Virus record (IMG/VR): IMGVR_UViG_2687453522_000001
Origin: a virus
Taxonomy: Duplodnaviria > Heunggongvirae > Uroviricota > Caudoviricetes
Length of the DNA stretch: 64,000 nucleotides
Strand: one strand, 5' to 3'
Shown here piece after piece: positions 2,045-58,243 of this stretch (the first letter of the stretch is position 1; every line of letters starts with the position of its first letter). A program made the translations under genes and the position numbers. Under the pieces are notes generated by a model. That model ran no database searches and was not told the origin of the DNA. It worked only from the letters and a program-made list of their open reading frames with translations.

Positions 2045-3352
2045 ATGAGCGAATATGTTGAGTTAGCATACGCTGCCGCTACAAGCAGGCTTTGTCTATT
2101 TACCGGGACTGGCTTTTCAAAGGCAGTCTCGAACGGTGAAGCTCCAACGTGGAAGGAACTATTAAAAAAAGTTTGCAGCAAAGTTCACAATGCCAAAAAG
2201 TTGGAAGACACGTTATTCCCTGATGATAAACCACCAGCACTGAGTCTTGAAGAAGCCGCACAAATACTATCTTTGAAGCTCAATATTGAGGGTAAGTCGA
2301 TTTATGATGAAATTGTTGACATCATATCTCCAATTCAACTTGGAGAAGACATATCAAATATAAAAGATTTTTTCCAAAAAAACTCATTCCGTGTCATTAC
2401 AACAAATTATGACAAGTTGGCTGAATGCTTGGTTGGAGATGAAAGTGTGCAGTCTATCACGCCCGGCCTGCCAATTCCAAAGTATCCATCCAAGGTGAAA
2501 ATATATCATGTTCATGGTTCTATTGATTCGCCAAAAAATATGATTGTCACTTCAGATGATTACTTCAGATTTATAAATTCCGATACTTATTTTTCACGAA
2601 AACTTAGTACGATGCTGCATGAAAATACAGTTGCGATATTAGGGTATTCTTTAAGCGACACAAATCTTAAAGCAATTATAAATGACTATAAAAAATTTTC
2701 GAAAAATAATGCCCTGTGCTCTAATATCTTTTTGATATCTCGCAACAAAGTAAGTCAAGATATGAAGGATTATTACTTCTATTGCTTTGGTATAAGGGTA
2801 ATTGACAATACAGAAATAGATTGTTTCTTTAGTCGATTAAGTTATAAGATTTCTCTCATTAAAGACATCATTGAAAGAGCGCGCGAAAATATCAGAAAAG
2901 TTGTTTCGGGGGCTTACACTTATAAAAATGAATATCTTAAATTAGAGGATTCATTTTATCAAATTATATCATCAATTATATCGGAAGGTTTAGATTGGAA
3001 TGATGATAAAGTCGTTTCTCTTTTCGAAAGGATAATAGAAAAAAAGAGAAAGTTAACAAGGAATAACGGAGCGTGGGAGCAATATGAACAGTTGGCAAAA
3101 TGGCTTATATATTTTGGAAGCATCATAGAGGTTAGCAATACTAAGTATGAAAAAACATATTTAGACGCAGTTGAATACTCGATGGGTCATATGAGTAAAG
3201 AAAGGAATTGGGGAGTTTCTTGGCATGCTTACAGAGCTTGGGAAACACGATGGCCTGCAATAATTGCCTCAAATAGATTAATGATAAAAAACCACATTGA
3301 AACATTAGGCACCTTGAAGGACGCCAACCTTATAGTTAAGAATATAGTGTAA
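2045..3352 (+). CDS. SIR2-like (sirtuin-fold, putative NAD+-hydrolysing) domain protein, 435 aa; candidate single-gene anti-phage defense
   Basis: N-terminal LFTGTGFSKA (Rossmann glycine loop), RVITTNYDKL (N121) and KIYHVHGSID (H157), spaced as in defense-associated SIR2 domains; alpha-helical C-terminal ~170 aa of unknown function; markedly AT-rich versus neighbours; GGAG Shine-Dalgarno. Confidence 0.8.
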   Translation: MSEYVELAYAAATSRLCLFTGTGFSKAVSNGEAPTWKELLKKVCSKVHNAKKLEDTLFPDDKPPALSLEEAAQILSLKLNIEGKSIYDEIVDIISPIQLGEDISNIKDFFQKNSFRVITTNYDKLAECLVGDESVQSITPGLPIPKYPSKVKIYHVHGSIDSPKNMIVTSDDYFRFINSDTYFSRKLSTMLHENTVAILGYSLSDTNLKAIINDYKKFSKNNALCSNIFLISRNKVSQDMKDYYFYCFGIRVIDNTEIDCFFSRLSYKISLIKDIIERARENIRKVVSGAYTYKNEYLKLEDSFYQIISSIISEGLDWNDDKVVSLFERIIEKKRKLTRNNGAWEQYEQLAKWLIYFGSIIEVSNTKYEKTYLDAVEYSMGHMSKERNWGVSWHAYRAWETRWPAIIASNRLMIKNHIETLGTLKDANLIVKNIV

Positions 3353-3372
3353 TTGTGGTCGATAAAAATTTA

Positions 3373-3396
3373 TCGGGCAGATAAAACTGCCCGATA
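3373..3396. terminator. bidirectional hairpin between the convergent SIR2-like gene and the lxc-like gene
   Basis: ATCGGGCAG-ataaaa-CTGCCCGAT perfect 9-bp inverted repeat with A/T-rich flanks. Confidence 0.45.
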
Positions 3397-3398
3397 AA

Positions 3399-3647
3399 TT
3401 AATCAGCATTCAGGAGCAATGCGTTATCTATGATGATCTGCTCCCATTCTTCGAATGCCCGGTCACGGACGCCCTGGGGAACGCTGTTAGTTTTGAAATC
3501 GACGACCGTACGCCATTTCCCGTCCGGACGGTACATGCGCAGAGCTTTACTTCCCCCTTCCCTGCGCACCTCAACGTTATGCTTATCAGCAAACTCTTGT
3601 AATGCTCGTAGCGTCCCATGCTTTACTGTGTAGTATCGCTTTTTCAA
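3399..3647 (-). CDS. lxc: Lxc (Bof)-like small protein, 82 aa
   Basis: Size and position (downstream of ulx and darB on the same strand) fit P1 lxc; named on synteny and size only. Confidence 0.4.
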   Translation of the reverse strand: MKKRYYTVKHGTLRALQEFADKHNVEVRREGGSKALRMYRPDGKWRTVVDFKTNSVPQGVRDRAFEEWEQIIIDNALLLNAD

Positions 3648-4084
3648 GTTTTCTCTCCAGCCTGTGCTAAGGCTTCAACTTCCAAATCGTAAGACTCAAA
3701 CTCATAGTCCTGGTCGTCAACCTCTTCAGGCACTGGCAGTAAATGCCAGGCTGAGTATATCTGACCATTATCAAAACGCTCCTGGCTGTAGAGCGTCGCA
3801 GCTATGAGCGTCAGCGCCGGGCGGTCATAACGGTAAATTTTGCGAACGTCACGGTCAACGAGACGACCGAAATTACCATAACCGCGCTCCAGTAATAATT
3901 TTTTAATTTCCGGCCAGTATGGACCATAGCTGCGGTACAGGCGGGGATTTTTCAGTAATCGCCCGCGTAGCCCTGACAGGAAGAAATCAACGTATTCGTC
4001 TTCTGTCTTTCCTAACAACGCTGTACGGAGTACCGCCTCAAGATATGTTTTATTCGGTTTTATTGTATCAGATAGTGTGGCCAT
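3644..4084 (-). CDS. ulx: Ulx-like protein, 146 aa
   Basis: Lies between darB and the lxc-like gene with a 4-nt overlap onto lxc; named on synteny only. Confidence 0.4.
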   Translation of the reverse strand: MATLSDTIKPNKTYLEAVLRTALLGKTEDEYVDFFLSGLRGRLLKNPRLYRSYGPYWPEIKKLLLERGYGNFGRLVDRDVRKIYRYDRPALTLIAATLYSQERFDNGQIYSAWHLLPVPEEVDDQDYEFESYDLEVEALAQAGEKT

Positions 4085-17297: not shown

Positions 17298-17606
17298 TCA
17301 ATATACGATCTGGTCTACATGATCACCAAAATCATCGTCGTCGTCCTCATCGCCACCATCTACTGCTGGCCAATCAACAAACCAGCCAGCGTAAAGATGC
17401 AGCGTTCGGAGAACATCACTTGCGGGAGCATCAAGGGTGTTAACGAATCCCATATAGCTATTGGGATTTGCCCCAGCTATGGCTTCAGCGATCATGTCCT
17501 CGGTAATGTCACCGGAGATAATGCTTAAACGCCCGGAAACTTCTTCATTATCATCAAATTCGATAATGGCATCTCCGCCTAATGGCGCTGCGATTTTAAT
17601 CTGCAT
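17298..17606 (-). CDS. hypothetical acidic protein, last gene of the dar operon
   Basis: 102 aa ending in an Asp-rich tail (DGGDEDDDDDFGD); start overlaps the ddrB-like stop. Confidence 0.4.
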   Translation of the reverse strand: MQIKIAAPLGGDAIIEFDDNEEVSGRLSIISGDITEDMIAEAIAGANPNSYMGFVNTLDAPASDVLRTLHLYAGWFVDWPAVDGGDEDDDDDFGDHVDQIVY

Positions 17607-20583
17607 TATTTAGCTCCTTTGCCACACCTAATAACAGTTCCAGCAATCCGTCACCATTCATCAGTGATGCGGCAGCGGCCTCTTTGTCATGATACAACTG
17701 AAGAGCCATAGAGAATACTTCCGTTGCTGACGTTTTGGAAATAGTCGGTGATTTCTGCCGAATTTTCCCGGTGTTACTTACTGAGGCTGGCGGGTATACC
17801 TTCGCCATATAAATATTACTCAATCGAGATCTGAAGCACCATTCAGGCTTGCCACGCCCACCGATATTGACGAAAGATGGCTTATCCCCTTCAACATTGG
17901 CCTTCAGGAATGACCGGGCTTTCTCTAACAAACCAGGGTTACTGTACTCAAGATGATGACCCAGCTCGTGCCACAGTGCACTTGCATTTTCATCGTTCAA
18001 ATTGACAGCAACAACACCATTTAGATTTGCATATGCCCTTCCCTGGTGGTGAACCACTTTTGATAAGGTCGATATTTTCCCGCCGGTCAGGCGATAAATA
18101 TCAGCAAGTTCCTTGCGCAGGTCTATCCCACCATTCTGTCCAGCGCGGGCTTCTTCCACTTCTTCCGTGATAAAAGAGTCGGCCCACTCAAGAGCTTTTT
18201 CTTCAGATACGGATGAGTTTGCGATCGCACTGTTCATGGCAGATAACACTTTCTCGTGGACCGAACCCATACTTCGCTGATTCATTTGCCAGCGTGTCTG
18301 CGGGTTGTATGAGAATCGCTTAAGTAGTTGGTCAAGCTGCTCAAGTTCTTCTTCACTGACATACTTTTTAGCCTCACCAATAATGCCAGGGAGAATATTG
18401 CCGTTAGGATTAAACGCTCGCGAAAGGAAGAGTTTCAGCGCCCCCATGCCCTCCGATGCTTCAATATCACCAATAACCCGGTTAACAATGGCCGCACTCT
18501 TCGGATTAGCATCCGCCAACGCCCTGGCTACAATTTGCAGGGACGATACGACCTCACGCTGCATATCAGTCCTGATCTCATCAATAAACTCTGGCGTTAT
18601 GCCGTGCTCTTTAAGGATATCCCTGCCTTCCGCCGTTACCCCATCGATATCACCGACATGTTTATTAACCTGACTTTGCAATGCCTTAAATGCCTTCAGA
18701 ATTCCACGGGCATCATCAGCTTTACTAACGGCCTTCCTGAATGCTGGCAAGAAGTCAGAGTTAACCTCATTTTGTTGATCGGCCCACTGAATGGAGGCTT
18801 CTTTCATCTCGTCCAGAGTCAGATCACCCAACGCGGTATGGTCTGTGAATATGAGCGACAACCTCTGAACCATTTCTGCCAATGGTGATGCCGAATGCGC
18901 CGCGCTAAGGAATGCTTTCACCCTGGTTGGGCGAATGGAAAACCAGTCAATAGCTGGTGGCATATCTCCGTTTTTTATCGCCTGCGCTATCTCGTCAAAG
19001 CCATCGCGCCCAAGGGAGGATGCGTGATTTAACAAGCCGCGAAGTAACGAATTGCTGATACCGAATAATCGGCACCATTTATTCACGTCGGCAACAGGCA
19101 TTCGAACAAAATGCGCAAGCACTTGTACAAGCTGTTCATCCTGGGGATCTGTACGGGAAAGCAGCCTGATCAGATGAATAATGTCTTTGATGCCGGATGC
19201 CCGATGTAATAGCAAGCTGGTATATGGAGCAACACCGTTGTAACTACCGCCGGAAACGGACTCGAAAAGACCGCCGGATATCCCTTGCATGCCTTCGTTT
19301 TCCAGTTCCTGAGACACCTGGCGAAGGATATCCTGTAACGACACATCACCACCGCCAAACATATCCCCCAGCGCCTGGCCCTGGTGCTGTAACTCATCAT
19401 TGATACGTTGAGCCATCAATTTAAAGGCGGTGGCCATACGCTTCGCGCTACGGTTATTCGCGACGATGAACAACGCGAGAGCTTTCACTTCCGGGGCTGT
19501 TTCGCTGAACATATCCCCCTGAGCAATAACATCGGTAATATGCTGGCCTGACTCCTTCGATTGCCTTACCAGGTCTACCGCATCTTTCAATGCCGCCAGC
19601 GCCTTTTTATCGAGGCTATCCGCTGTCTCAATGCCATCAACAATAGTTGTCACAGCCTGCTTGTGCGCTTCTCCTGATAAAGCCTGCATCTGGACAAAAT
19701 CATTGGCTGCCGCATTAAGCGCCGTCAGAACATTACGCATATCCGGATCAGGTTCTTCTGCAACCATCCTTACCAGGCGCGCATCCTTATATGCCTTGGC
19801 AAAGATCGCGTTTTGTATACGGTCAACAAGTTGCCGTGTTGGTCGCCCATCTTCCGTTACAAGGCCAGCAGCCTGTGTGGCACCAACTTGCGTCATGAAT
19901 CCGCGAATAAACGCGTCATTACTGCGGCTAAGCAGATCTCCGCTTTCTGACGGATTAAACAGCGCCATCATCGCCGGTGTTATGCTGTCGGCATCAACAA
20001 AAGCCTTTTCACTGGCTGCCATTTCCTGAAGATCAGAAATATTTGAGTCCTTGGCAAACTGAACGCGGTCAACCTTCGTTAACCGGCGGCGCACCAGTAC
20101 CGGAGCCGTCATTGATTCAACCTTTTCAGTACGTATGCCGAATTCGGTCGCATGTTCAATCAGGTACTCCCGATACCGATCCGCATTACCGTCCTGATAG
20201 GCTTTAATGATCCCCATGGTACGTCCATTACCTGACTCAACTGCATTGTCCTCACCAATTATCGGTGCGCCATGGCTGGATAATCCGGAATCGGTAAGCT
20301 GAGCAGGCCGCAAATCTTTGGATATCTGGTTAACCTGAAGAAGGCTGGATGCGCGGGTCCGGTCGCGCGGCTGAAGTTCCTGGGGATAGTCAGGATTAAT
20401 TTTCCCATCCAGAGTATTGGATACCAAAATAGCTGAGGCATCGACGATATCAAACGCTGTTTTTACCTCGTCTCCCTTCGCTGTCACCACATACGAAACC
20501 CGCCCATAATCGGGCAGGTTCTTTAGCAGCTCGATCAGCGTTTCTATGCTGGTGGCCATTACCACCTGATCGCTTAAGCTCAT
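17596..20583 (-). CDS. ddrB: DdrB-like large virion internal protein, 995 aa
   Basis: Size and position within the dar operon fit P1 ddrB; named on synteny. Confidence 0.5.
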   Translation of the reverse strand: MSLSDQVVMATSIETLIELLKNLPDYGRVSYVVTAKGDEVKTAFDIVDASAILVSNTLDGKINPDYPQELQPRDRTRASSLLQVNQISKDLRPAQLTDSGLSSHGAPIIGEDNAVESGNGRTMGIIKAYQDGNADRYREYLIEHATEFGIRTEKVESMTAPVLVRRRLTKVDRVQFAKDSNISDLQEMAASEKAFVDADSITPAMMALFNPSESGDLLSRSNDAFIRGFMTQVGATQAAGLVTEDGRPTRQLVDRIQNAIFAKAYKDARLVRMVAEEPDPDMRNVLTALNAAANDFVQMQALSGEAHKQAVTTIVDGIETADSLDKKALAALKDAVDLVRQSKESGQHITDVIAQGDMFSETAPEVKALALFIVANNRSAKRMATAFKLMAQRINDELQHQGQALGDMFGGGDVSLQDILRQVSQELENEGMQGISGGLFESVSGGSYNGVAPYTSLLLHRASGIKDIIHLIRLLSRTDPQDEQLVQVLAHFVRMPVADVNKWCRLFGISNSLLRGLLNHASSLGRDGFDEIAQAIKNGDMPPAIDWFSIRPTRVKAFLSAAHSASPLAEMVQRLSLIFTDHTALGDLTLDEMKEASIQWADQQNEVNSDFLPAFRKAVSKADDARGILKAFKALQSQVNKHVGDIDGVTAEGRDILKEHGITPEFIDEIRTDMQREVVSSLQIVARALADANPKSAAIVNRVIGDIEASEGMGALKLFLSRAFNPNGNILPGIIGEAKKYVSEEELEQLDQLLKRFSYNPQTRWQMNQRSMGSVHEKVLSAMNSAIANSSVSEEKALEWADSFITEEVEEARAGQNGGIDLRKELADIYRLTGGKISTLSKVVHHQGRAYANLNGVVAVNLNDENASALWHELGHHLEYSNPGLLEKARSFLKANVEGDKPSFVNIGGRGKPEWCFRSRLSNIYMAKVYPPASVSNTGKIRQKSPTISKTSATEVFSMALQLYHDKEAAAASLMNGDGLLELLLGVAKELNNAD

Positions 20584-20592
20584 CCCTGTTAC

Positions 20593-21930
20593 GCCTTATC
20601 CAATGTGCCGCCCCCTACGCTCCTCATAGTGGGGATATAAGGCACAGTTTTCCTCCCGGCTATTTTTGCTTAAAATAGTGACATGAAACAACAGGTGTCA
20701 TTCAAATTCCGGTTAAAACCAGATGGTCAACAGGAGCATCAAATGAGGCGCTTTGCCGGAGCTTGTCGTTTCGTTTTCAACCGTGCTCTGGCGCTTCAGA
20801 ATGAGAATCATGAGGCCGGTAAAAAATACATCCCTTACACGAAAATGGCTTCCTGGTTGGTTGAGTGGAAAAAAGACACTGAAACCGAATGGCTTAAAGA
20901 TTCTCCCTCACAGCCATTGCAACAGTCACTGAAAGACCTTGAGCGGGCTTACAAAAACTTCTTCCAGAATCGGGCAGCTTTTCCCCGATTCAAAAAGCGG
21001 GGACAGAATGATGCATTCCGCTACCCGCAGGGTGTTAAGCTCGATCAGGAAAACAGCCGTATTTTTCTGCCGAAACTTGGCTGGATGCGCTACCGGAATA
21101 GCCGTCAGGTCACGGGTATTGTGAAAAATGTTACTGTCAGCCAGTCCTGCGGTAAGTGGTACATCAGTATTCAGACAGAAAGAGAGGTATCCACTCCTGT
21201 TCACCCTTCAGCATCAATGGTCGGACTGGATGCTGGCGTGGCTAAACTCGCCACGCTGTCAGATGGCACAGTCTTTGAACCTGTAAATAGTTTTCAGAAA
21301 AACCAGAAGAAGCTGGCGAGACTTCAGCGACAGTTAAGCCGCAAGGTCAAATTCAGCAACAACTGGCAGAAGCAGAAACGCAAAATACAGCGACTGCATT
21401 CCCGTATCGCAAATATCCGCAGGGACTACCTTCACAAAGTCACAACGACCGTCAGCAAAAACCACGCAATGATTGTCATTGAGGATTTGAAGGTTAAATA
21501 CATGTCAAAGTCAGCGGCGGGAACGATAAGTCATCCGGGTCGCAATGTCCGGGCAAAATCAGGTTTAAACCGTTCGATACTGGATCAGGGCTGGTATGAA
21601 ATGCGCCGCCAGCTTGAGTACAAGCAGCTCTGGCGTGGCGGTCAGGTGCTTGCTGTTCCGCCAGCGTACACAAGCCAGCGTTGCGCGTGCTGTGGTCATA
21701 CAGCGAAAGAAAATCGCCTGTCACAAAGTAAATTCAGATGCCAGGTATGTGGATATACAGCGAACGCCGATGTAAACGGCGCTCGTAACATTTTAGCGGC
21801 GGGGCACGCCGTACTTGCCTGTGGAGGGATGGTGCAGTCAGGCCGCCCGTTGAAGCAGGAACCCACCGAAATGATTCAGGCGACAGCCTGAACGTAGCAG
21901 GAATCCACGCCCTTCGGGGCGTGGAGGATG
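20593..21930 (+). mobile_element. IS200/IS605-family tnpB-only insertion sequence (IS1341-like)
   Basis: Inserted right after a TTAC tetranucleotide (20589-20592); tnpB ORF; 3' end carries a perfect hairpin CCACGCCC-ttcg-GGGCGTGG (21905-21924) typical of IS605 right ends / omega-RNA region; no tnpA. Exact ends not determinable without comparison. Confidence 0.6.
20683..21891 (+). CDS. tnpB: TnpB (OMEGA RNA-guided nuclease), 402 aa
   Basis: RuvC-like motifs ([25 protein letters not shown]) and C-terminal CxxC...CxxC zinc finger (CACCGH...CQVCGY). Confidence 0.85.
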
Positions 21931-22296
21931 TCACGCTGCCTCTTTAATGTTGGCGGCTATCCATGCCGCCGTGTGCTGTTTAACCTGGTCCAGGTCGATG
22001 TATGTGCCAACATATTGACTCAAGTCCTGTAACGTACCGATAAATGCATCGGTGCTCTGATCGACGAATTTATCAGCCAGGAAATCAGCAACCAGTTTTG
22101 GCACACCATCATGTACCGAAGGTTGTTTTTCCTCGCCACTACTGCCGCCGGACACACCGTACCCCATCTGTTGCATGATCTGGTCAATTTCATCGCTGAT
22201 ATCCAGCAACTCCATGCCACTCGCGGTAGCCGCTTTGGACATCAGAGCATCCAACTTATCGCTGAGATCCATTAACTCAATAGCTGATAGTGTCAT
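21931..22296 (-). CDS. ddrA: DdrA-like protein, 121 aa
   Basis: Immediately downstream of darA with a 4-nt overlap; its stop codon abuts the IS right end; named on synteny. Confidence 0.4.
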   Translation of the reverse strand: MTLSAIELMDLSDKLDALMSKAATASGMELLDISDEIDQIMQQMGYGVSGGSSGEEKQPSVHDGVPKLVADFLADKFVDQSTDAFIGTLQDLSQYVGTYIDLDQVKQHTAAWIAANIKEAA

Positions 22297-24212
22297 GCCG
22301 CTACCCCCGCTTTCTGGATTGCTACCAACAGATCAGCCAGGTGGCGAGCTGCGCCGTTAACCAGCTCTTCGTTTTCCTCAAAACGTCCGGCAGCCTGAAG
22401 GGCTGCAATCGCTTCCCGGACATTGCCCCGAGCGTTACGGATCTCCGCCATGTCAGTGCTTTGCATATCCATCACGTTATTGAGATATTCAATGGCTTTA
22501 TTAGCCTCTGCATCTGCTTCGCTAACCGTTTCATCAGGCTGTGCCGGGGCCGGTTCTGGCTGAGTAATCTCACCGACTTCGGCCTGCAATGTATTGATCA
22601 TGCTCTGCACCATTTTCTCGGTGCCAGCGCCCCCCGGAAACGCAATATTGGGGAAAGTTTTTTGAAACTGAGTTTTCAGCATTACGCGGAACTCGTCTGG
22701 TGAGCTGGTGGCCAGATCCAGAGTTTTTTGTGCATATTTGCCAAACGGACCATTAGTAAGTGTCTTCGCCAGGAAGTCGAAAGAATCCTCGCGAGGCAAT
22801 AACTTCAGGTCGTACTCACTCATTTGCTGATCAGAAAGCGGGGTATCGTAAGTAGCAATGCCGTAGCGTGCATATTCATAATACGGGTCACCTTCATCAG
22901 GGCGCGGCAGAATTGCTTTGTTACCTTCAGGTATTGCGCCAGGGGCCGCCGGACGCATTTGCAGGGCATATCGATATGCACCTACAGAGACTTCTGGTTC
23001 AGGCGAAGAGCTACCGGTATCCTCCGCTGGTTCAGGTTCGACGTTTTCCGGTTTATGTTCTTCTGGTTGGACCAGGTATTCCGATACATTACCCGCTTTA
23101 TAGGCTTTAAACAGCTTGCCGATCGCATCTGCCATGTCCACACCCTGTATGGATTTAGCCTTGATCATGTATACGCTGCCATCCGGATCGGTTAACTGGA
23201 TATACCCTTCGCCGCCCCCAATGAATTGCTTCATTGATGCACCATTACTGAGCGTCACTTCCCCGTCCATATGCATACGATTTTTGATACTGGCAAGGCG
23301 ATCCGTCAGCGCGCGAGAGTGCCCACCAGTCATCCCCGCTGGAGCAATGGTATCGCGCCCACCAGTGCGATTGAGCTGATCAATCTCCGTCTGCAAACGC
23401 TCATTCTCTTCATAAAGAGAATCCGCTTCCGATGCAACAGCGTTAATTTTCTGCTCCAGATCTGCCTTCTGCCCTTCTACCGCTGCCACCTGATCCGCGA
23501 GGTCGCTCATGGCATCCTCTTTCTGGTCACTGTCAGCCTGTAGTTGGGTTATTTCATCAACAAGGGCTTTTTTCTTCTTCTGCGCACGCTGGAATTTTGC
23601 CGAGTTTTTCTCTGCAAGGTTGGCAAGTTTCATGGTGACCTGCGCCAGCGTCATATCACGTCCACTCATCGGAGCAACGGTGTGAGTAACGTCTTTTTTA
23701 TTCAGTAAGAACTGGAAAGCAACCAGCGTATCGCTATTGGTGATCCGGTTTTCCGCTGTCGGGCTATGAAACAGAATGCTGATAGTCTGACCATCACTGA
23801 GCGGAATAATGGCTGGCAAGACCGGCAGCCCGTTAACGTTACGTGCCCGGCCAATTTCAGCGCCGCCGATCGCGCGCGCGCCGCTCTGGGCCACATCCCC
23901 CGTTTTATCACTCCCCGCAGAGATTCCGGTACCATTCAGCTTCTGGTTCAATGCCCGGACAAATGCCTGCATGGTCCGGTGTAACTGCAAACGAGTAGAA
24001 CTAATCGCCTCCAGTAAATCCGTAGCACACCAGTGGATCGGCGTGTCATAGAAGAACGTAGCCTCGATTTCCTCCAGGGTGTTGGATTCCGTCATCAGAT
24101 AGCGGTCCTCACCGGCCATTAATGCGCGATATTCATCATCAGTCACTGGCGGGGGAAGCACGTCAAGCCCAGGCTTGATCGTCACCCCTTTATTGATATT
24201 GAACTGTTCCAT
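22293..24212 (-). CDS. darA: DarA-like virion anti-restriction protein, 639 aa
   Basis: Size and operon position (after lydA/lydB/hdf, before ddrA/ddrB) fit P1 DarA. Confidence 0.55.
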   Translation of the reverse strand: MEQFNINKGVTIKPGLDVLPPPVTDDEYRALMAGEDRYLMTESNTLEEIEATFFYDTPIHWCATDLLEAISSTRLQLHRTMQAFVRALNQKLNGTGISAGSDKTGDVAQSGARAIGGAEIGRARNVNGLPVLPAIIPLSDGQTISILFHSPTAENRITNSDTLVAFQFLLNKKDVTHTVAPMSGRDMTLAQVTMKLANLAEKNSAKFQRAQKKKKALVDEITQLQADSDQKEDAMSDLADQVAAVEGQKADLEQKINAVASEADSLYEENERLQTEIDQLNRTGGRDTIAPAGMTGGHSRALTDRLASIKNRMHMDGEVTLSNGASMKQFIGGGEGYIQLTDPDGSVYMIKAKSIQGVDMADAIGKLFKAYKAGNVSEYLVQPEEHKPENVEPEPAEDTGSSSPEPEVSVGAYRYALQMRPAAPGAIPEGNKAILPRPDEGDPYYEYARYGIATYDTPLSDQQMSEYDLKLLPREDSFDFLAKTLTNGPFGKYAQKTLDLATSSPDEFRVMLKTQFQKTFPNIAFPGGAGTEKMVQSMINTLQAEVGEITQPEPAPAQPDETVSEADAEANKAIEYLNNVMDMQSTDMAEIRNARGNVREAIAALQAAGRFEENEELVNGAARHLADLLVAIQKAGVAA

Positions 24213-25246: not shown

Positions 25247-25572
25247 TTCCCGCCTCCCTTTTTCACCAAACTTGTAAGAACATTCAGAATGCTATCGATA
25301 TTCACTCGTTTCATCCCTGAAATCACCTCATGACCGTTATTGCTGGCTATCGTTACCATTAAGTACGTAATTGATAACTCCCAGCCCTCGTGTTGCCCCA
25401 ATAGGTACGCCACCGCGCCAGCTGTCACTGCAACAAAGATCTCCGTAACCAATCCCAACAAATTGCCAGACTGGCGACCGTCTCGGACATCCATCAGGAA
25501 CGTGCCTATCCCACCAATTACTGAAAGCAGGAGCGCAATAGCAACTGGAGCTAATTCCTGTGTGTCAAGCAC
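25243..25572 (-). CDS. lydA: LydA-like holin, 109 aa
   Basis: Small protein with two or three predicted TM helices and a charged C-terminus; first gene of the dar operon as in P1. Confidence 0.55.
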   Translation of the reverse strand: MLDTQELAPVAIALLLSVIGGIGTFLMDVRDGRQSGNLLGLVTEIFVAVTAGAVAYLLGQHEGWELSITYLMVTIASNNGHEVISGMKRVNIDSILNVLTSLVKKGGGK

Positions 25573-25646
25573 AAGTTCCCTCCTACGTTGTCAGGAGGTA
25601 ATGGTATGCAAAGTAACTTCTCAACCGGTTATGTTGCATAAGAGAC

Positions 25647-25910
25647 TTACCTATTCAACCAACTTTTGGAACCTTCAATAATAAGCCTGCTATTGGCGCT
25701 GAAAATAAGAACCATGCAGCTCTGAAGGCTTTCATTCATATCCTTATATTCCGCGAGATACATGCCAATAAAGCCAGCAAGTACGGCGGAAATACATTCG
25801 GCCAGCAATTTCTTGCATGAAGACTCGTAACGGTTTTCACATAGCCCACTCAAATACGAATACACCCCACCAAGAAGGGATAACATCACGATATGTACAT
25901 AAAATGTCAT
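25647..25910 (-). CDS. small membrane protein (holin-like)
   Basis: 87 aa with two hydrophobic helices; upstream of lydA. Confidence 0.4.
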   Translation of the reverse strand: MTFYVHIVMLSLLGGVYSYLSGLCENRYESSCKKLLAECISAVLAGFIGMYLAEYKDMNESLQSCMVLIFSANSRLIIEGSKSWLNR

Positions 25911-26037
25911 TTTTTACCTATACAACAGTAAGTTGAACAACATCTGAGAACGGTATGCACTTTGTGATTTCCACACACACTGGTTTTGTTAATTAAAACC
26001 TGTAGCTTGCAATAAATAACGATAGTGGGCAGAAAAT

Positions 26038-26283
26038 ATGCTAATAGGCTATGTACGCATATAGACAAATGAACAAAACACAGCTATGCAGTGAAAAGCA
26101 CTTGAAAGCGCAGGATGTGAGCTAATTTTTGCGAATAAGGCGAGCAGCAAAAAGGCTGGGCACCCTGGGTTAAAAAAGGTTCTGCGTATGCTTTCCAGAG
26201 GTGATACCCTAGTCTCGGGCTAGGGACAACATTTCGAGGACAGTTTTCATTAGCGGTCAGCAGGCGCTAGATACATCGAATTG
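26038..26283 (+). pseudogene. decayed serine DNA-invertase gene fragment (Cin/Pin/Gin/Hin-like N-terminus)
   Basis: Translation MLIGYVRI*TNEQNTAMQ*KALESAGCELIF...KAGHPGLKKVLRMLSRGDTLVSG* is co-linear with the Cin N-terminus but has three in-frame stops, one replacing the catalytic-Ser codon; downstream homology fades. Confidence 0.6.
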
Positions 26284-26345
26284 ATGTGCCGCGCGATAAA
26301 TGTACCTATTCTATCAAGATAAATTACACCGACGCGGCATTAGAA

Positions 26346-26918
26346 TTACAGCTCAGATTGAGTTTGGCGCTTCTCTACAGGATGATAACGATAAATCGTC
26401 GATACACCGATATCGTAAATAATTGCCAACTGTTTCCTGCTGTAGCCATTTTCGATCAACCTCGCTATTTGCTCATGTTGTTCTTTTGTCAACTTCGGGC
26501 GACGTCCGCCAATGCGTCCCTGTTCGCGTGCAGCTGCCAGTCCGGCCAGTGTTCTCTCAACAATTAATTCACGTTCCATTTCTGCTAAAGCCCCCATGAC
26601 GTGAAAAAAGAAACGCCCCATGGGTGTTGATGTGTCAATACTGTCTGTCAGACTACGGAAATTAACACCTTTTTCCCGCAACTCCTCTATAAGCGTGATA
26701 AGGTGTTTCATACTTCTGCCAAGCCTATCCAGCTTCCAGACAACCAGCGTATCTCCTTCTGATAACGTTCTGAGCAGCTTTTTCAAGCCTGGTCTGGCTG
26801 ACTTTGTTCCGCTTATTTTATCTTCAAAAATCAGTTCACATCCTGCGCACTCCAGCGCGTTACGCTGCAATTCTGTATTCTGGTCATTTGTTGATACGCG
26901 GACATAGCCAATAAGCAT
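26346..26918 (-). CDS. cin: Cin serine DNA invertase, 190 aa
   Basis: MLIGYVRVSTNDQNTELQ catalytic motif, resolvase core and C-terminal HTH; adjacent to an invertible tail-fibre segment. Confidence 0.9.
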   Translation of the reverse strand: MLIGYVRVSTNDQNTELQRNALECAGCELIFEDKISGTKSARPGLKKLLRTLSEGDTLVVWKLDRLGRSMKHLITLIEELREKGVNFRSLTDSIDTSTPMGRFFFHVMGALAEMERELIVERTLAGLAAAREQGRIGGRRPKLTKEQHEQIARLIENGYSRKQLAIIYDIGVSTIYRYHPVEKRQTQSEL

Positions 26919-55628: not shown

Positions 55629-56825
55629 TCAGTTAGATCTGATAAATTCAATACGGTCAAAAACTGCTTTAGCAAAATCTTCCGCGGCAATTCGCGCGTT
55701 CTTCAATGCATCAGCACTACCAACATACGTTGCCGGGTTAGCTGAAATAACAGTGTCAAAAGACTCGCCGCAACGTTCAAAACCGTCAAGGCGAGGGAGG
55801 ACGACATCGAGCATATCCCCACCGAACACTTCTTTAGCCAAGCTATGGCAATACTTATGATCTGCCTTGTTACTCAACTTGGACATAAAACCAATGTTAG
55901 TCGCAAGCTGGCACTCGCAGCCTTCATCCGAAATGAGTTTCACCAACTCAGGAAGGCGGGCAACGTATTTAAGCGATGAGTGGAAATCGACAGTTGCTGG
56001 CGGCAGAGGTGTAAACAGTATATTGGCCGAGGCCAAAGCATTTTTCAGGAAGGCGTCAAGGTGAGGACCACTATCAACGAGGATAAAGTCATAATCGCTC
56101 TTCAGCTTATCAATCACATTTTCTTTCAGGACAGCATGGATGTTCTGACCCGGTAGATGCTCATTGCACAGCTCTCTCCAATCGGATGCAATAAAGGCAT
56201 CGTCAATCGACGCAGGCATAACGTCAACCCCAGGTACAACAGAAGGAACAATAAACTCCTCTAACAGCTCTTCACGGCTTACATTCTGCAACATAGCCTG
56301 TGCAGATGTTGCGTTTACGATACCAATAGAGTGTTTATGGCTTAAAAACATCGTTGCTGAAGATTGCGGATCAAGGTCAATAACCAGAATCCTTAAATCT
56401 TCCATCAGAAGATGAGGGTGGGCACGCATTGCATGCGCCAGAGAAACCGTCGATACAGTTTTTGACACACCGCCTTTAAGATTGGAGATGAAAATCACAT
56501 ACGCTTCGCTGTAGCGATCCCGGTATTTTGGCACTCCGCGATGTTCATATATGTCAATGATGTTCTGAATTGACATCGCATATTTCATTGAAGAGCCAGC
56601 AGGGCGTTTATCGAAAACATAGCCCTTTTCTTCCATTTCACTTACGGCATAGTCAACGTTCGCTCGAGTCAGTAGAGGCAATTTTGCCAGTGCCGCTTTC
56701 GCATAGACCTGGTAAAACTCGTTCGCGTGTAGCTCATCCTTTTGCAACTGTACTTGTTCAGTCAGAACATTGAGCATTCTGTTTGCTCTTTGAGCAACCT
56801 TGTGAAGCTGGCTGGAATCACTCAT
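55629..56825 (-). CDS. parA: ParA partition ATPase (type Ia, N-terminal HTH extension), 398 aa
   Basis: Walker A NLKGGVSKTVSTVS; length equals P1 ParA. Confidence 0.9.
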   Translation of the reverse strand: MSDSSQLHKVAQRANRMLNVLTEQVQLQKDELHANEFYQVYAKAALAKLPLLTRANVDYAVSEMEEKGYVFDKRPAGSSMKYAMSIQNIIDIYEHRGVPKYRDRYSEAYVIFISNLKGGVSKTVSTVSLAHAMRAHPHLLMEDLRILVIDLDPQSSATMFLSHKHSIGIVNATSAQAMLQNVSREELLEEFIVPSVVPGVDVMPASIDDAFIASDWRELCNEHLPGQNIHAVLKENVIDKLKSDYDFILVDSGPHLDAFLKNALASANILFTPLPPATVDFHSSLKYVARLPELVKLISDEGCECQLATNIGFMSKLSNKADHKYCHSLAKEVFGGDMLDVVLPRLDGFERCGESFDTVISANPATYVGSADALKNARIAAEDFAKAVFDRIEFIRSN

Positions 56826-57098
56826 CGAAAGTCATCCTTTATGCTGTATTTTTGAATTTAATTAAAAATGCTGCATAAAATAATAATGTATGCGTAGATG
56901 CTTGTACATAGCATTCTCTGCATGTTTACTCCTTTGCCAAGTGTGTCACAACATGCTTTGGCATCCTCCACGTATAAAGGACGCGGATTTCTTCTATGTT
57001 CAGGTTGTAGCCTGAATCATTTTGGTGATTTCCTGCTTCAACGGGCAGCCAGGCTTCACTCTCTATCAACTGGTGAGAACGGCTTGCCCGGCAGCTTC

Positions 57099-57382
57099 GA
57101 TGTGTGCTGGAGGGAGAATAAAAGTCTAAGATGTGCGATAGAGGGAAGTCGCATTGAATTATGTGCTGTGGAGGGATCGCTGGTATCAAATATGTGTGCT
57201 GGAGGGAAAGACAGAGAATTACATGTGCGCTGGAGGGAAAAACTGATGGACAGATGTGTGCTGGAGGGAAAGTCTGGGCAAACTGCGGGGCGTCCCCCTC
57301 CAGCGCACATCAAAAACAGGAAATTGGACAAGCCTTCCCGGCAGCACACATTTTTTGAATGCAGCTGCCCTCCAGCACACAC
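57099..57382. repeat. incA iteron array (nine 19-bp RepA-binding repeats, six in one orientation and three inverted)
   Basis: GATGTGTGCTGGAGGGAAA-type repeats at about 57099, 57131, 57159, 57191, 57222, 57251; inverted copies (CCCTCCAGC[A/G]CACA) at about 57295, 57335, 57368. Confidence 0.85.
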
Positions 57383-58243
57383 TTATTCGGGGAGTTTCAG
57401 CTTTGGATTGCGAGAATGGACGATTACAAAACTTTCCCGGCCTTTCTTCTCAATTGAACAGTCGAGATAGCCGATTGTTTTAAGCTGTTCTATCGCTTTC
57501 TTAATGATACGGTTTTGCTCGCCAACAGCTGACTGCAAAGCCAGGCGCTCACGGATTCGCGCGAACGATAGCGGCAACGGGTTCTGCGGAAGGCTTTCGA
57601 TGAAAGTGTAAATGGCTTGTGCAGCTTCTTTCTTCGGAAGGGCACGCAAGGCGTGGTGTTGCAACAGAACGCGATAATCAAGCTGGAACAGCTCCCACAA
57701 CTTCGAATCAGCCTCCAGCTCTATCAGATCAAGGTCAGCATCAAAACGCCCGACCTTCAGCAGACCAGTCTGATAGCCGCCTTTAGCATCTTTTCCGCGC
57801 TTAAAAGCGATACCCTTGTTACGCAAGCGTCCAAGTGATTCATGAATGGTTAAACGCAGTTTCGCATCCAGACGTTTTGAGGGGAAACCACAGGCTTTAG
57901 CGAATTCCTGAAACGATAACTGGATGGTGTTTGAGGACAAGCCGTATTTGCTGAACGCGTAGATGACACCGATCCACGTTTTGAAATCAGTATCCATATC
58001 GAGTCGAGGACCGGTGATTTTAATATCATCGTAACCCTCGGCTTTAGCTATCTCCAGCTGGGAAAACGCTTTGGTGGCATCAATCTCTTTACTTTCTCCT
58101 TTGCTCTTTGATGGCTTCGGCACGAATACCCCCAAGCGCATCAACGCTACAGGCTGCACAGTGTTGTTTGAATTAACTGTTAGTTCTTTTGCCTTACTTT
58201 CAATGTCTGCGTAAAGAATATCGGAGATAAATGATTGATTCAT
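57383..58243 (-). CDS. repA: RepA plasmid replication initiator, 286 aa
   Basis: Flanked by iteron arrays; length equals P1 RepA. Confidence 0.9.
   Translation of the reverse strand: MNQSFISDILYADIESKAKELTVNSNNTVQPVALMRLGVFVPKPSKSKGESKEIDATKAFSQLEIAKAEGYDDIKITGPRLDMDTDFKTWIGVIYAFSKYGLSSNTIQLSFQEFAKACGFPSKRLDAKLRLTIHESLGRLRNKGIAFKRGKDAKGGYQTGLLKVGRFDADLDLIELEADSKLWELFQLDYRVLLQHHALRALPKKEAAQAIYTFIESLPQNPLPLSFARIRERLALQSAVGEQNRIIKKAIEQLKTIGYLDCSIEKKGRESFVIVHSRNPKLKLPE

Follow-up and report, generated by a model that had tools for sequence, protein, structure and literature searches.

The 64-kb window analysed here belongs to a P1-like phage-plasmid and includes the dar (defence against restriction) operon, in which an insertion sequence (IS) of the IS200/IS605 family lies between the ddrA and ddrB genes. 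The element is tnpB-only and non-autonomous, and it entered the operon 3' of a TTAT tetranucleotide that overlaps the ddrA stop codon, without any duplication. In all likelihood, it is a fixed IS609-like copy derived from a single ancestral insertion, which rebuilt the ddrA stop codon, is nearly neutral for the Dar functions and possibly takes part in homing. The insertion has already been annotated and published, and the element is an ordinary member of a known family. What is added here comprises its exact ends, the rebuilt ddrA stop, a decayed left end, the covariation of a predicted omega RNA, and the finding that ddrB is still under selection. The features concerned are listed below.

20600..21934, plus strand: complete IS609-like tnpB-only element of the IS200/IS605 family, 1335 bp, delimited by filled versus empty sites
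20596..20599, plus strand: TTAT target tetranucleotide, presumed transposon-associated motif (TAM), from the empty sites in P1 and Ro157c2 and from the left flanks of relatives
20600..20682, plus strand: left end (LE) of the element, from comparison across ~25 relatives
20683..21891, plus strand: tnpB, 402 aa, predicted TnpB/InsQ-type RNA-guided endonuclease, from its open reading frame (ORF), Pfam and structure matches
21769..21934, plus strand: predicted omega-RNA scaffold, overlapping the last ~40 tnpB codons and extending to the right end
21904..21925, plus strand: subterminal hairpin of the right end (RE), TCCACGCCC-TTCG-GGGCGTGGA, with a 9-bp stem and covariation
21931..21933, minus strand: new ddrA stop codon TGA, supplied by the right end of the element
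21935..21954, plus strand: predicted 20-nt guide GCTGCCTCTTTAATGTTGGC, just 3' of the RE, deduced from the TnpB/omega-RNA architecture

In megablast searches of phage genomes with a 2-kb query, P1, P7 and several relatives match the flanks alone (33% of the query, in two pieces), and full-length matches are found in RCS47, SJ46 and vB_EcoM-813R1. The empty junction reads GCCTTAT/GCTGCC in P1 and vB_EcoM-Ro157c2YLVW, and the filled one GCCTTAT-IS-GCTGCC in the window. In its longer form, the uninterrupted junction of these two phages is CAT-CCCTGTTACGCC-TTA-TGCTGCCTC, that is, the complement of the ddrB start, a 12-nt spacer, the complement of the ddrA stop, and ddrA. The corresponding junctions of the window are ...GCCTTAT/CCAATGTGCC... 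on the left and ...GGAGGATGTCAC/GCTGCCTC... on the right. The initial annotation had proposed an insertion, not ancestral P1 sequence, and had called for a comparison with the P1 junction; this comparison bears the proposal out, the whole stretch being absent from P1. The limits of the element had been set at 20584 or 20593 to 21935, and the empty sites correct them to 20600..21934. Its left boundary, 20600, maps to position 25,544 of pSvP1, which is the published coordinate. No target-site duplication and no terminal inverted repeats accompany the element. The tetranucleotide TTAC, first taken as the target, gives way to TTAT at 20596-20599, the true flank: the TTAC at 20589-20592 is native P1 sequence of the ddrA-ddrB spacer, found in empty sites too.

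The position of the target explains how DdrA survives the insertion. Read on the minus strand, TTAT comprises the last base of the old final ddrA alanine codon and the old TAA stop, and the split point falls inside the last sense codon/stop (GC/A TAA). The last four bases of the element, TCAC, read G + TGA on the minus strand and restore alanine and a stop, base 21934 being the third base of the last alanine codon (GCG, formerly GCA). DdrA thus remains 121 aa long, as in P1, and ends in ...KEAA in both, because the right end of the element (GTCAC) rebuilds the last-codon base and a TGA stop. A perfect hairpin, CCACGCCC-TTCG-GGGCGTGG, had been described at 21905-21924 as abutting the ddrA stop. 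The hairpin itself stands; beyond abutting the stop, the element split the old one and supplies the new end.

The two ends of the element have fared differently. The LE retains its outer helix, TGTGCC/GGCACA. The inner hairpin, which serves in this family as TnpA recognition site, has a consensus similar to the RE hairpin, CCCCGTCC-TTCA-GGGCGGGG, kept in relatives down to ~60% protein identity; in the window, this consensus is replaced by CCCCCTACGCTCCTCATAGTGGGG. The DNA fold of the window LE is weak (-6.9 kcal/mol, z -0.35), and just a bulged 7-bp alternative can form. Given this departure from the consensus, the copy has probably become immobile, no longer mobilisable by a TnpA. The full LE, including its divergent first 31 nt, occurs in 74 plasmid records alone, approximately the 71 records of the filled allele given below, and these 31 nt also vary among the copies examined at the ddrA/ddrB site. 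The LE variant, the TCAC end and the flanks are common to all seven other copies examined there. In the ~25 loci of relatives, the left flank is TTAT in the majority and TTAC otherwise.

At the other extremity, the RE hairpin (21904-21925) possesses a 9-bp stem, folds at -12.4 kcal/mol (z -2.43) and displays compensatory changes in six of its nine pairs among 52 relatives. The right end of the relatives is nearly invariant, GGAGGATGTCAA, with a conserved terminus GGAGGATGTCA(A/C). To note, SJ46, an E. albertii plasmid, pTB502 and pLAO38 harbor an RE hairpin CCACACCC-CGAA-GGGCGTGG in place of the CCACGCCC-TTCG-GGGCGTGG of the window, with an inverted loop and one stem base changed, which looks like a flip of the palindrome loop.

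Elsewhere in the window, a fossil of a related IS609-like 3' end lies on the minus strand at 56959-57096, with the incA/repA side on one flank and the parA promoter region on the other. Over 139 nt, its identity to element positions 1196-1334 is 77%; it ends in ...GGAGGATGCCAA and retains 33 codons of a TnpB C-terminus, 61% identical. Reference P1 has this fossil too (98% over 56600-57500), and the match to P7 starts at 57096.

A tblastn search of the whole 64-kb window with the TnpA of a relative found no tnpA (best E 1.4), in line with the earlier view that the element is non-autonomous. The stretch from its left tip to the start codon of tnpB measures only 83 nt. This short LE-tnpB junction (TTAAAATAG-N6-ATG) recurs in tnpB-only copies elsewhere: on unrelated plasmids, namely Salmonella pN55391 and Klebsiella IncF plasmids, and in further P1-like plasmids, where the copy occupies another site, between lyz and pro. 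Deletion of tnpA in situ is thereby ruled out: the loss of tnpA preceded the insertion, and the tnpB-only form is a propagated variant.

The lyz-pro site holds a second, independent insertion in P1-like plasmids. In NZ_AP027471.1, a P1-like IncY plasmid, a tnpB-only IS609-type element 94% identical to that of the window occupies positions 2470-3804, with the lysozyme gene on one side and the head-processing protease gene on the other. This copy, preceded by TTAT, carries a canonical LE hairpin and a TCAA end and matches the pJIE250-3 insertion of Venturini et al. 2019. The TTAAAATAG motif lies 6 nt upstream of the tnpB ATG (window 20663-20682) and is kept in the loci L004 (NZ_AP027471.1), L006 and L007, with no obvious Shine-Dalgarno sequence in this segment; the motif may act as a -10 element, in which case the tnpB mRNA would be leaderless or nearly so.

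The TnpB ORF, 402 codons without an internal stop, runs on the plus strand between the two minus-strand genes ddrA and ddrB. HMM matches in Pfam, all far above the cut-offs, cover HTH_OrfB_IS605 (PF12323, E 2.5e-16), the RuvC domain OrfB_IS605 (PF01385, E 1.5e-34) and the zinc ribbon Cas12f1-like_TNB (PF07282, E 2.3e-24). Of the natural proteins with solved structures, ISDra2 TnpB (PDB IDs 8bf8, 8exa and 8h1j; E 9e-52) matches best. The RuvC D-E-D triad is complete, with D183 in GLDAGV, E268 in VIEDLK and D363 in NADVNG, and two CxxC pairs (C334/C337 and C353/C356) are present; these motifs align with their counterparts in a solved TnpB-type nuclease. The initial reading of an intact TnpB on the opposite strand, with RuvC motifs, a zinc finger and no missed frameshift, is thus upheld. 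The gene is full-length in all eight copies examined at the ddrA/ddrB site, despite dS, the synonymous divergence, reaching 0.098. The ratio of nonsynonymous to synonymous divergence (dN/dS) is 0.17-0.23 among these copies, and the IS diverges by 1.4-3.9% between them, of the same order as the flanks. Both the dN/dS values and the retention of the ORF support a continued, predicted function of tnpB.

An omega RNA had been expected at the 3' end of the element, and covariation backs its predicted structure. When the last 200 nt of 52 distinct relatives are aligned, RNAalifold yields a multi-helix consensus with compensatory changes in 16 of 34 pairs. This model was slightly revised to seven helices for scoring, as follows.

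Helix 1: 21769-73 with 21928-32
Helix 2: 21796-21812
Helix 3: 21818-22 with 21855-59
Helix 4: 21827-28 with 21846-47
Helix 5: 21831-33 with 21842-44
Helix 6: 21877-21890
Helix 7: 21904-21925, the RE hairpin

In the seven-helix model, 95.1% of the cells are paired, against 40-51% when the partners are slid by 1-3 columns. Double (compensatory) changes affect 19 pairs and 102 cells, and on none of the five measures did any of 500 shuffles score as high. The many G-U pairs indicate that the structured molecule is RNA rather than single-stranded DNA. Folded as a single sequence, the window copy reaches -71.4 kcal/mol (z -2.59) with the same local helices. One pairing proposed by RNAalifold, CCUG/CAGG (columns 235-238 with 258-261), was discarded in favor of a local hairpin, CAGGC/GCCUG; of its five pairs, four show compensatory changes and one varies between GC, GU and AU. 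An Rfam search of 20000-22600 (E <=1) returned three matches, all below the gathering threshold and all on the omega-RNA stretch: RAGATH-18 (28.1, threshold 44.9), HgcC (22.6, threshold 50) and sot0042 (17.8, threshold 88). They fit an omega RNA without assigning the stretch to any Rfam family. Taken computationally, the evidence supports a conserved structured RNA at the 3' end of the element that fits a predicted omega RNA.

Past the right end by 17 nt, a terminator-like stem-loop, GGCGGC-TATCCAT-GCCGCC followed by GTGTGCTGTTT, occupies window 21951-21971 on the plus strand. It is antisense within ddrA and consists of native P1 sequence; a tnpB/omega-RNA transcript could have its 3' end there, terminator scans being overall at chance level.

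In TnpB systems, the guide is formed by the 16-20 nt just outside the right end, and the TAM is the transposon target motif. Here, the guide stretch (21935-21954) is the complement of the last ddrA codons. TTAT followed by the same 20 nt (20 of 20 identical) is precisely the uninterrupted allele of P1 and of most of 383 PLSDB plasmids. The filled allele has GTCAC instead of TTAT just ahead of the guide match, and self-targeting is therefore not expected. The probable course of events would begin with a single insertion in a forebear of the RCS47/SJ46-type P1-like sublineage, with a TnpA acting in trans; vertical descent or recombination would have passed it on since. Provided that TnpB and its omega RNA are produced, the 16-20 nt adjoining the right end would serve as guide, and the complex would recognise TTAT + GCTGCCTCTTTAATG..., the uninterrupted ddrA/ddrB allele. 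It would then cut this empty allele, in the manner of the TnpB retention/homing mechanism of IS200/IS605 elements.

The filled allele, over the whole 2-kb query, is found in 71 PLSDB plasmids, or some 16% of the P1-like ones; their hosts are E. coli, Salmonella and E. albertii. The empty allele occurs in 356 PLSDB plasmids with a 666-bp query and in up to 383 with the 60-bp junction. The insertion was annotated in RCS47 (FO818745, 2014) as insQ, 'transposase IS605', between DdrB and DdrA, and likewise in SJ46 (KU760857). It goes unmentioned in the SJ46 paper and in a survey of P1-like phage-plasmids. An IS609 with cleavage sites TTAT and TCAA has been described in the P1-like pJIE250-3, and an 'IS609-like sequence (25,544-26,881)' in pSvP1 (Venturini et al. 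2019, PMC6906374); pSvP1_F (MN510446) holds exactly the insertion of the window. The insertion is a lineage marker of one branch of P1-like phage-plasmids, to which RCS47 and SJ46, both carriers of resistance genes, belong.

The surrounding dar genes are as follows.

17596..20583, minus strand: ddrB, 995 aa, intact, with a ddrB-ParB domain (Pfam)
21931..22296, minus strand: ddrA, 121 aa, protein end as in P1
22293..24212, next after ddrA: 639-aa ORF (DarA), with Pfam domains DarA_N and DarA_C

Homologues of DarA, DdrA and DdrB thus occur in the P1 order, annotated darA-ddrA-ddrB in P1, and the flanks of the element are 96-98% identical in nucleotides to P1 and P7. For the roles of the Dar proteins, see PMC12810830.

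We infer a single ancestral insertion because the LE variant is essentially confined to plasmids carrying the ddrA/ddrB insertion. The direction of the event could be reversed if the element were ancestral to P1-like phages and had been lost by precise TnpA excision from P1, P7 and most relatives: excision of IS200/IS605 elements is seamless, so that the empty junction alone gives no direction. This scenario is highly improbable, as empty alleles outnumber filled ones by ~5:1 and include P1, P7 and diverse plasmids, the ddrA stop is rebuilt from IS sequence, so that an insertion occurred at some point anyway, and the divergent LE makes repeated excision unlikely. The consequences for the operon are a separate matter. 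The initial annotation had held that the insertion probably uncouples ddrB, and a polar block would indeed detach ddrB and the downstream hxr from darA/ddrA late transcription, altering the Dar content of virions and the anti-restriction phenotype. In place of the 12-nt gap of P1, 1335 bp of untranslated antisense DNA separate ddrA from ddrB, any translational coupling is lost, Rho-dependent termination is conceivable, and one weak terminator-like site is found on the minus strand (21317..21302). Besides, the ddrB frame ends after 842 codons, instead of 995, in NZ_CP099870.1, an insertion-bearing E. albertii plasmid for which the PLSDB table lists no ddrB protein; this truncation could be real decay or a sequencing error. 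Against such a block, no convincing dar-sense terminator was found within the element, its terminator-like matches being at chance level (3 found, 2.3 expected), and the RE hairpin is not followed by a T run on the minus strand. Immediately ahead of the ddrB ATG, 16 nt that include the ribosome-binding region are unchanged from P1. The ddrB gene is full-length in the window, RCS47 and SJ46, and annotated as 2976 bp in pSvP1. Its dN/dS is 0.034 between the window and SJ46, two IS-bearing lineages, and such strong purifying selection argues against silencing. Furthermore, the allele persists in the ~71 plasmids of the three host groups. An outward promoter-like site (minus strand, 20701..20672) and the terminator-like sites were set aside as evidence, the scan being at chance level. 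The uncoupling claim is therefore unsupported, a polar block appears decidedly unlikely, and the effect of the insertion on Dar function is probably small.

Whether TnpB and its RNA still act is a question on which two further readings bear. The element may be an inert fossil, TnpB or RNA being not made or inactive, with an ORF whose intactness is due to recent insertion or gene conversion and not to selection. The aberrant LE, the atypical RE, the lack of tnpA in the window and the position of tnpB antisense to a strong late operon fit this reading, and chromosomal IS609 copies, potential conversion donors, are nearly universal in E. coli. It is nevertheless somewhat unlikely, given the full ORF in eight of eight copies despite their synonymous divergence, a dN/dS of ~0.2, the presence of all catalytic and zinc-binding residues, and RNA helices that are intact in the window copy. 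At the opposite extreme, the TnpB-omega RNA complex might be an allele-specific weapon or a gene drive among P1-like phage-plasmids, a speculative extension that we regard as unlikely. Roughly five-sixths of P1-like plasmids carry the junction that the predicted guide and TAM match. If it were true, a lysogen with the element could cut an incoming or co-resident IS-free P1 relative, leading to its destruction or to its conversion by recombinational repair. Purifying selection on tnpB in a non-transposing element would then be explained, and the element would offer a natural example of phage-plasmids competing, or of homing between them, through a transposon nuclease.

Several points weigh against the preferred reading of a fixed, near-neutral copy with possible homing. 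The aberrant LE might still be a working variant, by means of its alternative 7-bp stem with one bulge. The RE of the window ends in TCAC where TCAA is usual, TCAC being also found in two distant relatives. Gene conversion from chromosomal IS609 copies could overstate the purifying selection on tnpB, and a quantitative polar effect on ddrB transcription is possible. The TAM (TTAT/TTAC) is deduced solely from transposon flanks, and the functions of TnpB and of its RNA are predicted from their anatomy. A literature search for activity of the IS609/InsQ TnpB, or for a TnpB in phage-plasmids, returned nothing decisive; one paper includes the IS609 TnpB among nine candidates, of which SfaTnpB is reported as the most active, and gives no separate IS609 result.

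Comparison with known systems places the copy of the window among its nearest relatives. The pSvP1 insertion (MN510446) shares its site and left coordinate. Over window 20300-22300, RCS47 and vB_EcoM-813R1 are 99.6-99.8% identical and SJ46 is 96.7% identical, all with identical junctions; SJ46-type copies differ from the window by the inverted RE loop (CGAA for TTCG), one stem mismatch and a few more LE substitutions. The IS609 of pJIE250-3 follows the same cleavage-site logic, with TTAT on the left and a TCAA-type end on the right. In the chromosome, element positions 100-1334 are ~95% identical in nucleotides to insQ/IS609 copies located next to ydcO in 5014 of 5426 complete E. coli genomes, and the chromosomal InsQ (ydcM) is ~92-93% identical to the TnpB of the window. 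This chromosomal IS609 has a divergent tnpA upstream of insQ (a pseudogene in the copy inspected), whereas the window element has none; the latter also differs by its diverged first 31 nt and LE hairpin and by TCAC for TCAA at the RE.

IS608 of Helicobacter pylori inserts 3' of TTAC, has subterminal hairpins, neither inverted repeats nor target duplication, and excises seamlessly. The window element shares with it the insertion at a tetranucleotide, the lack of inverted repeats and of duplication, and the RE subterminal hairpin. IS608 is autonomous, with a co-directional tnpA, whereas the window element relies on a TnpA supplied in trans, and the likeness between its LE and RE hairpins has been lost. 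ISDra2 possesses tnpA and uses TTGAT, its TAM being the transposon target site; the window element is flanked by TTAT, TTAC being the variant of its relatives, and lacks tnpA, and its TnpB is a predicted nuclease. The TnpB proteins of the two share their architecture and catalytic motifs (PDB IDs 8bf8, 8exa and 8h1j for ISDra2). As in ISDra2, the RNA predicted for the window element would overlap the tnpB 3' end and the RE and draw its guide from the flank.

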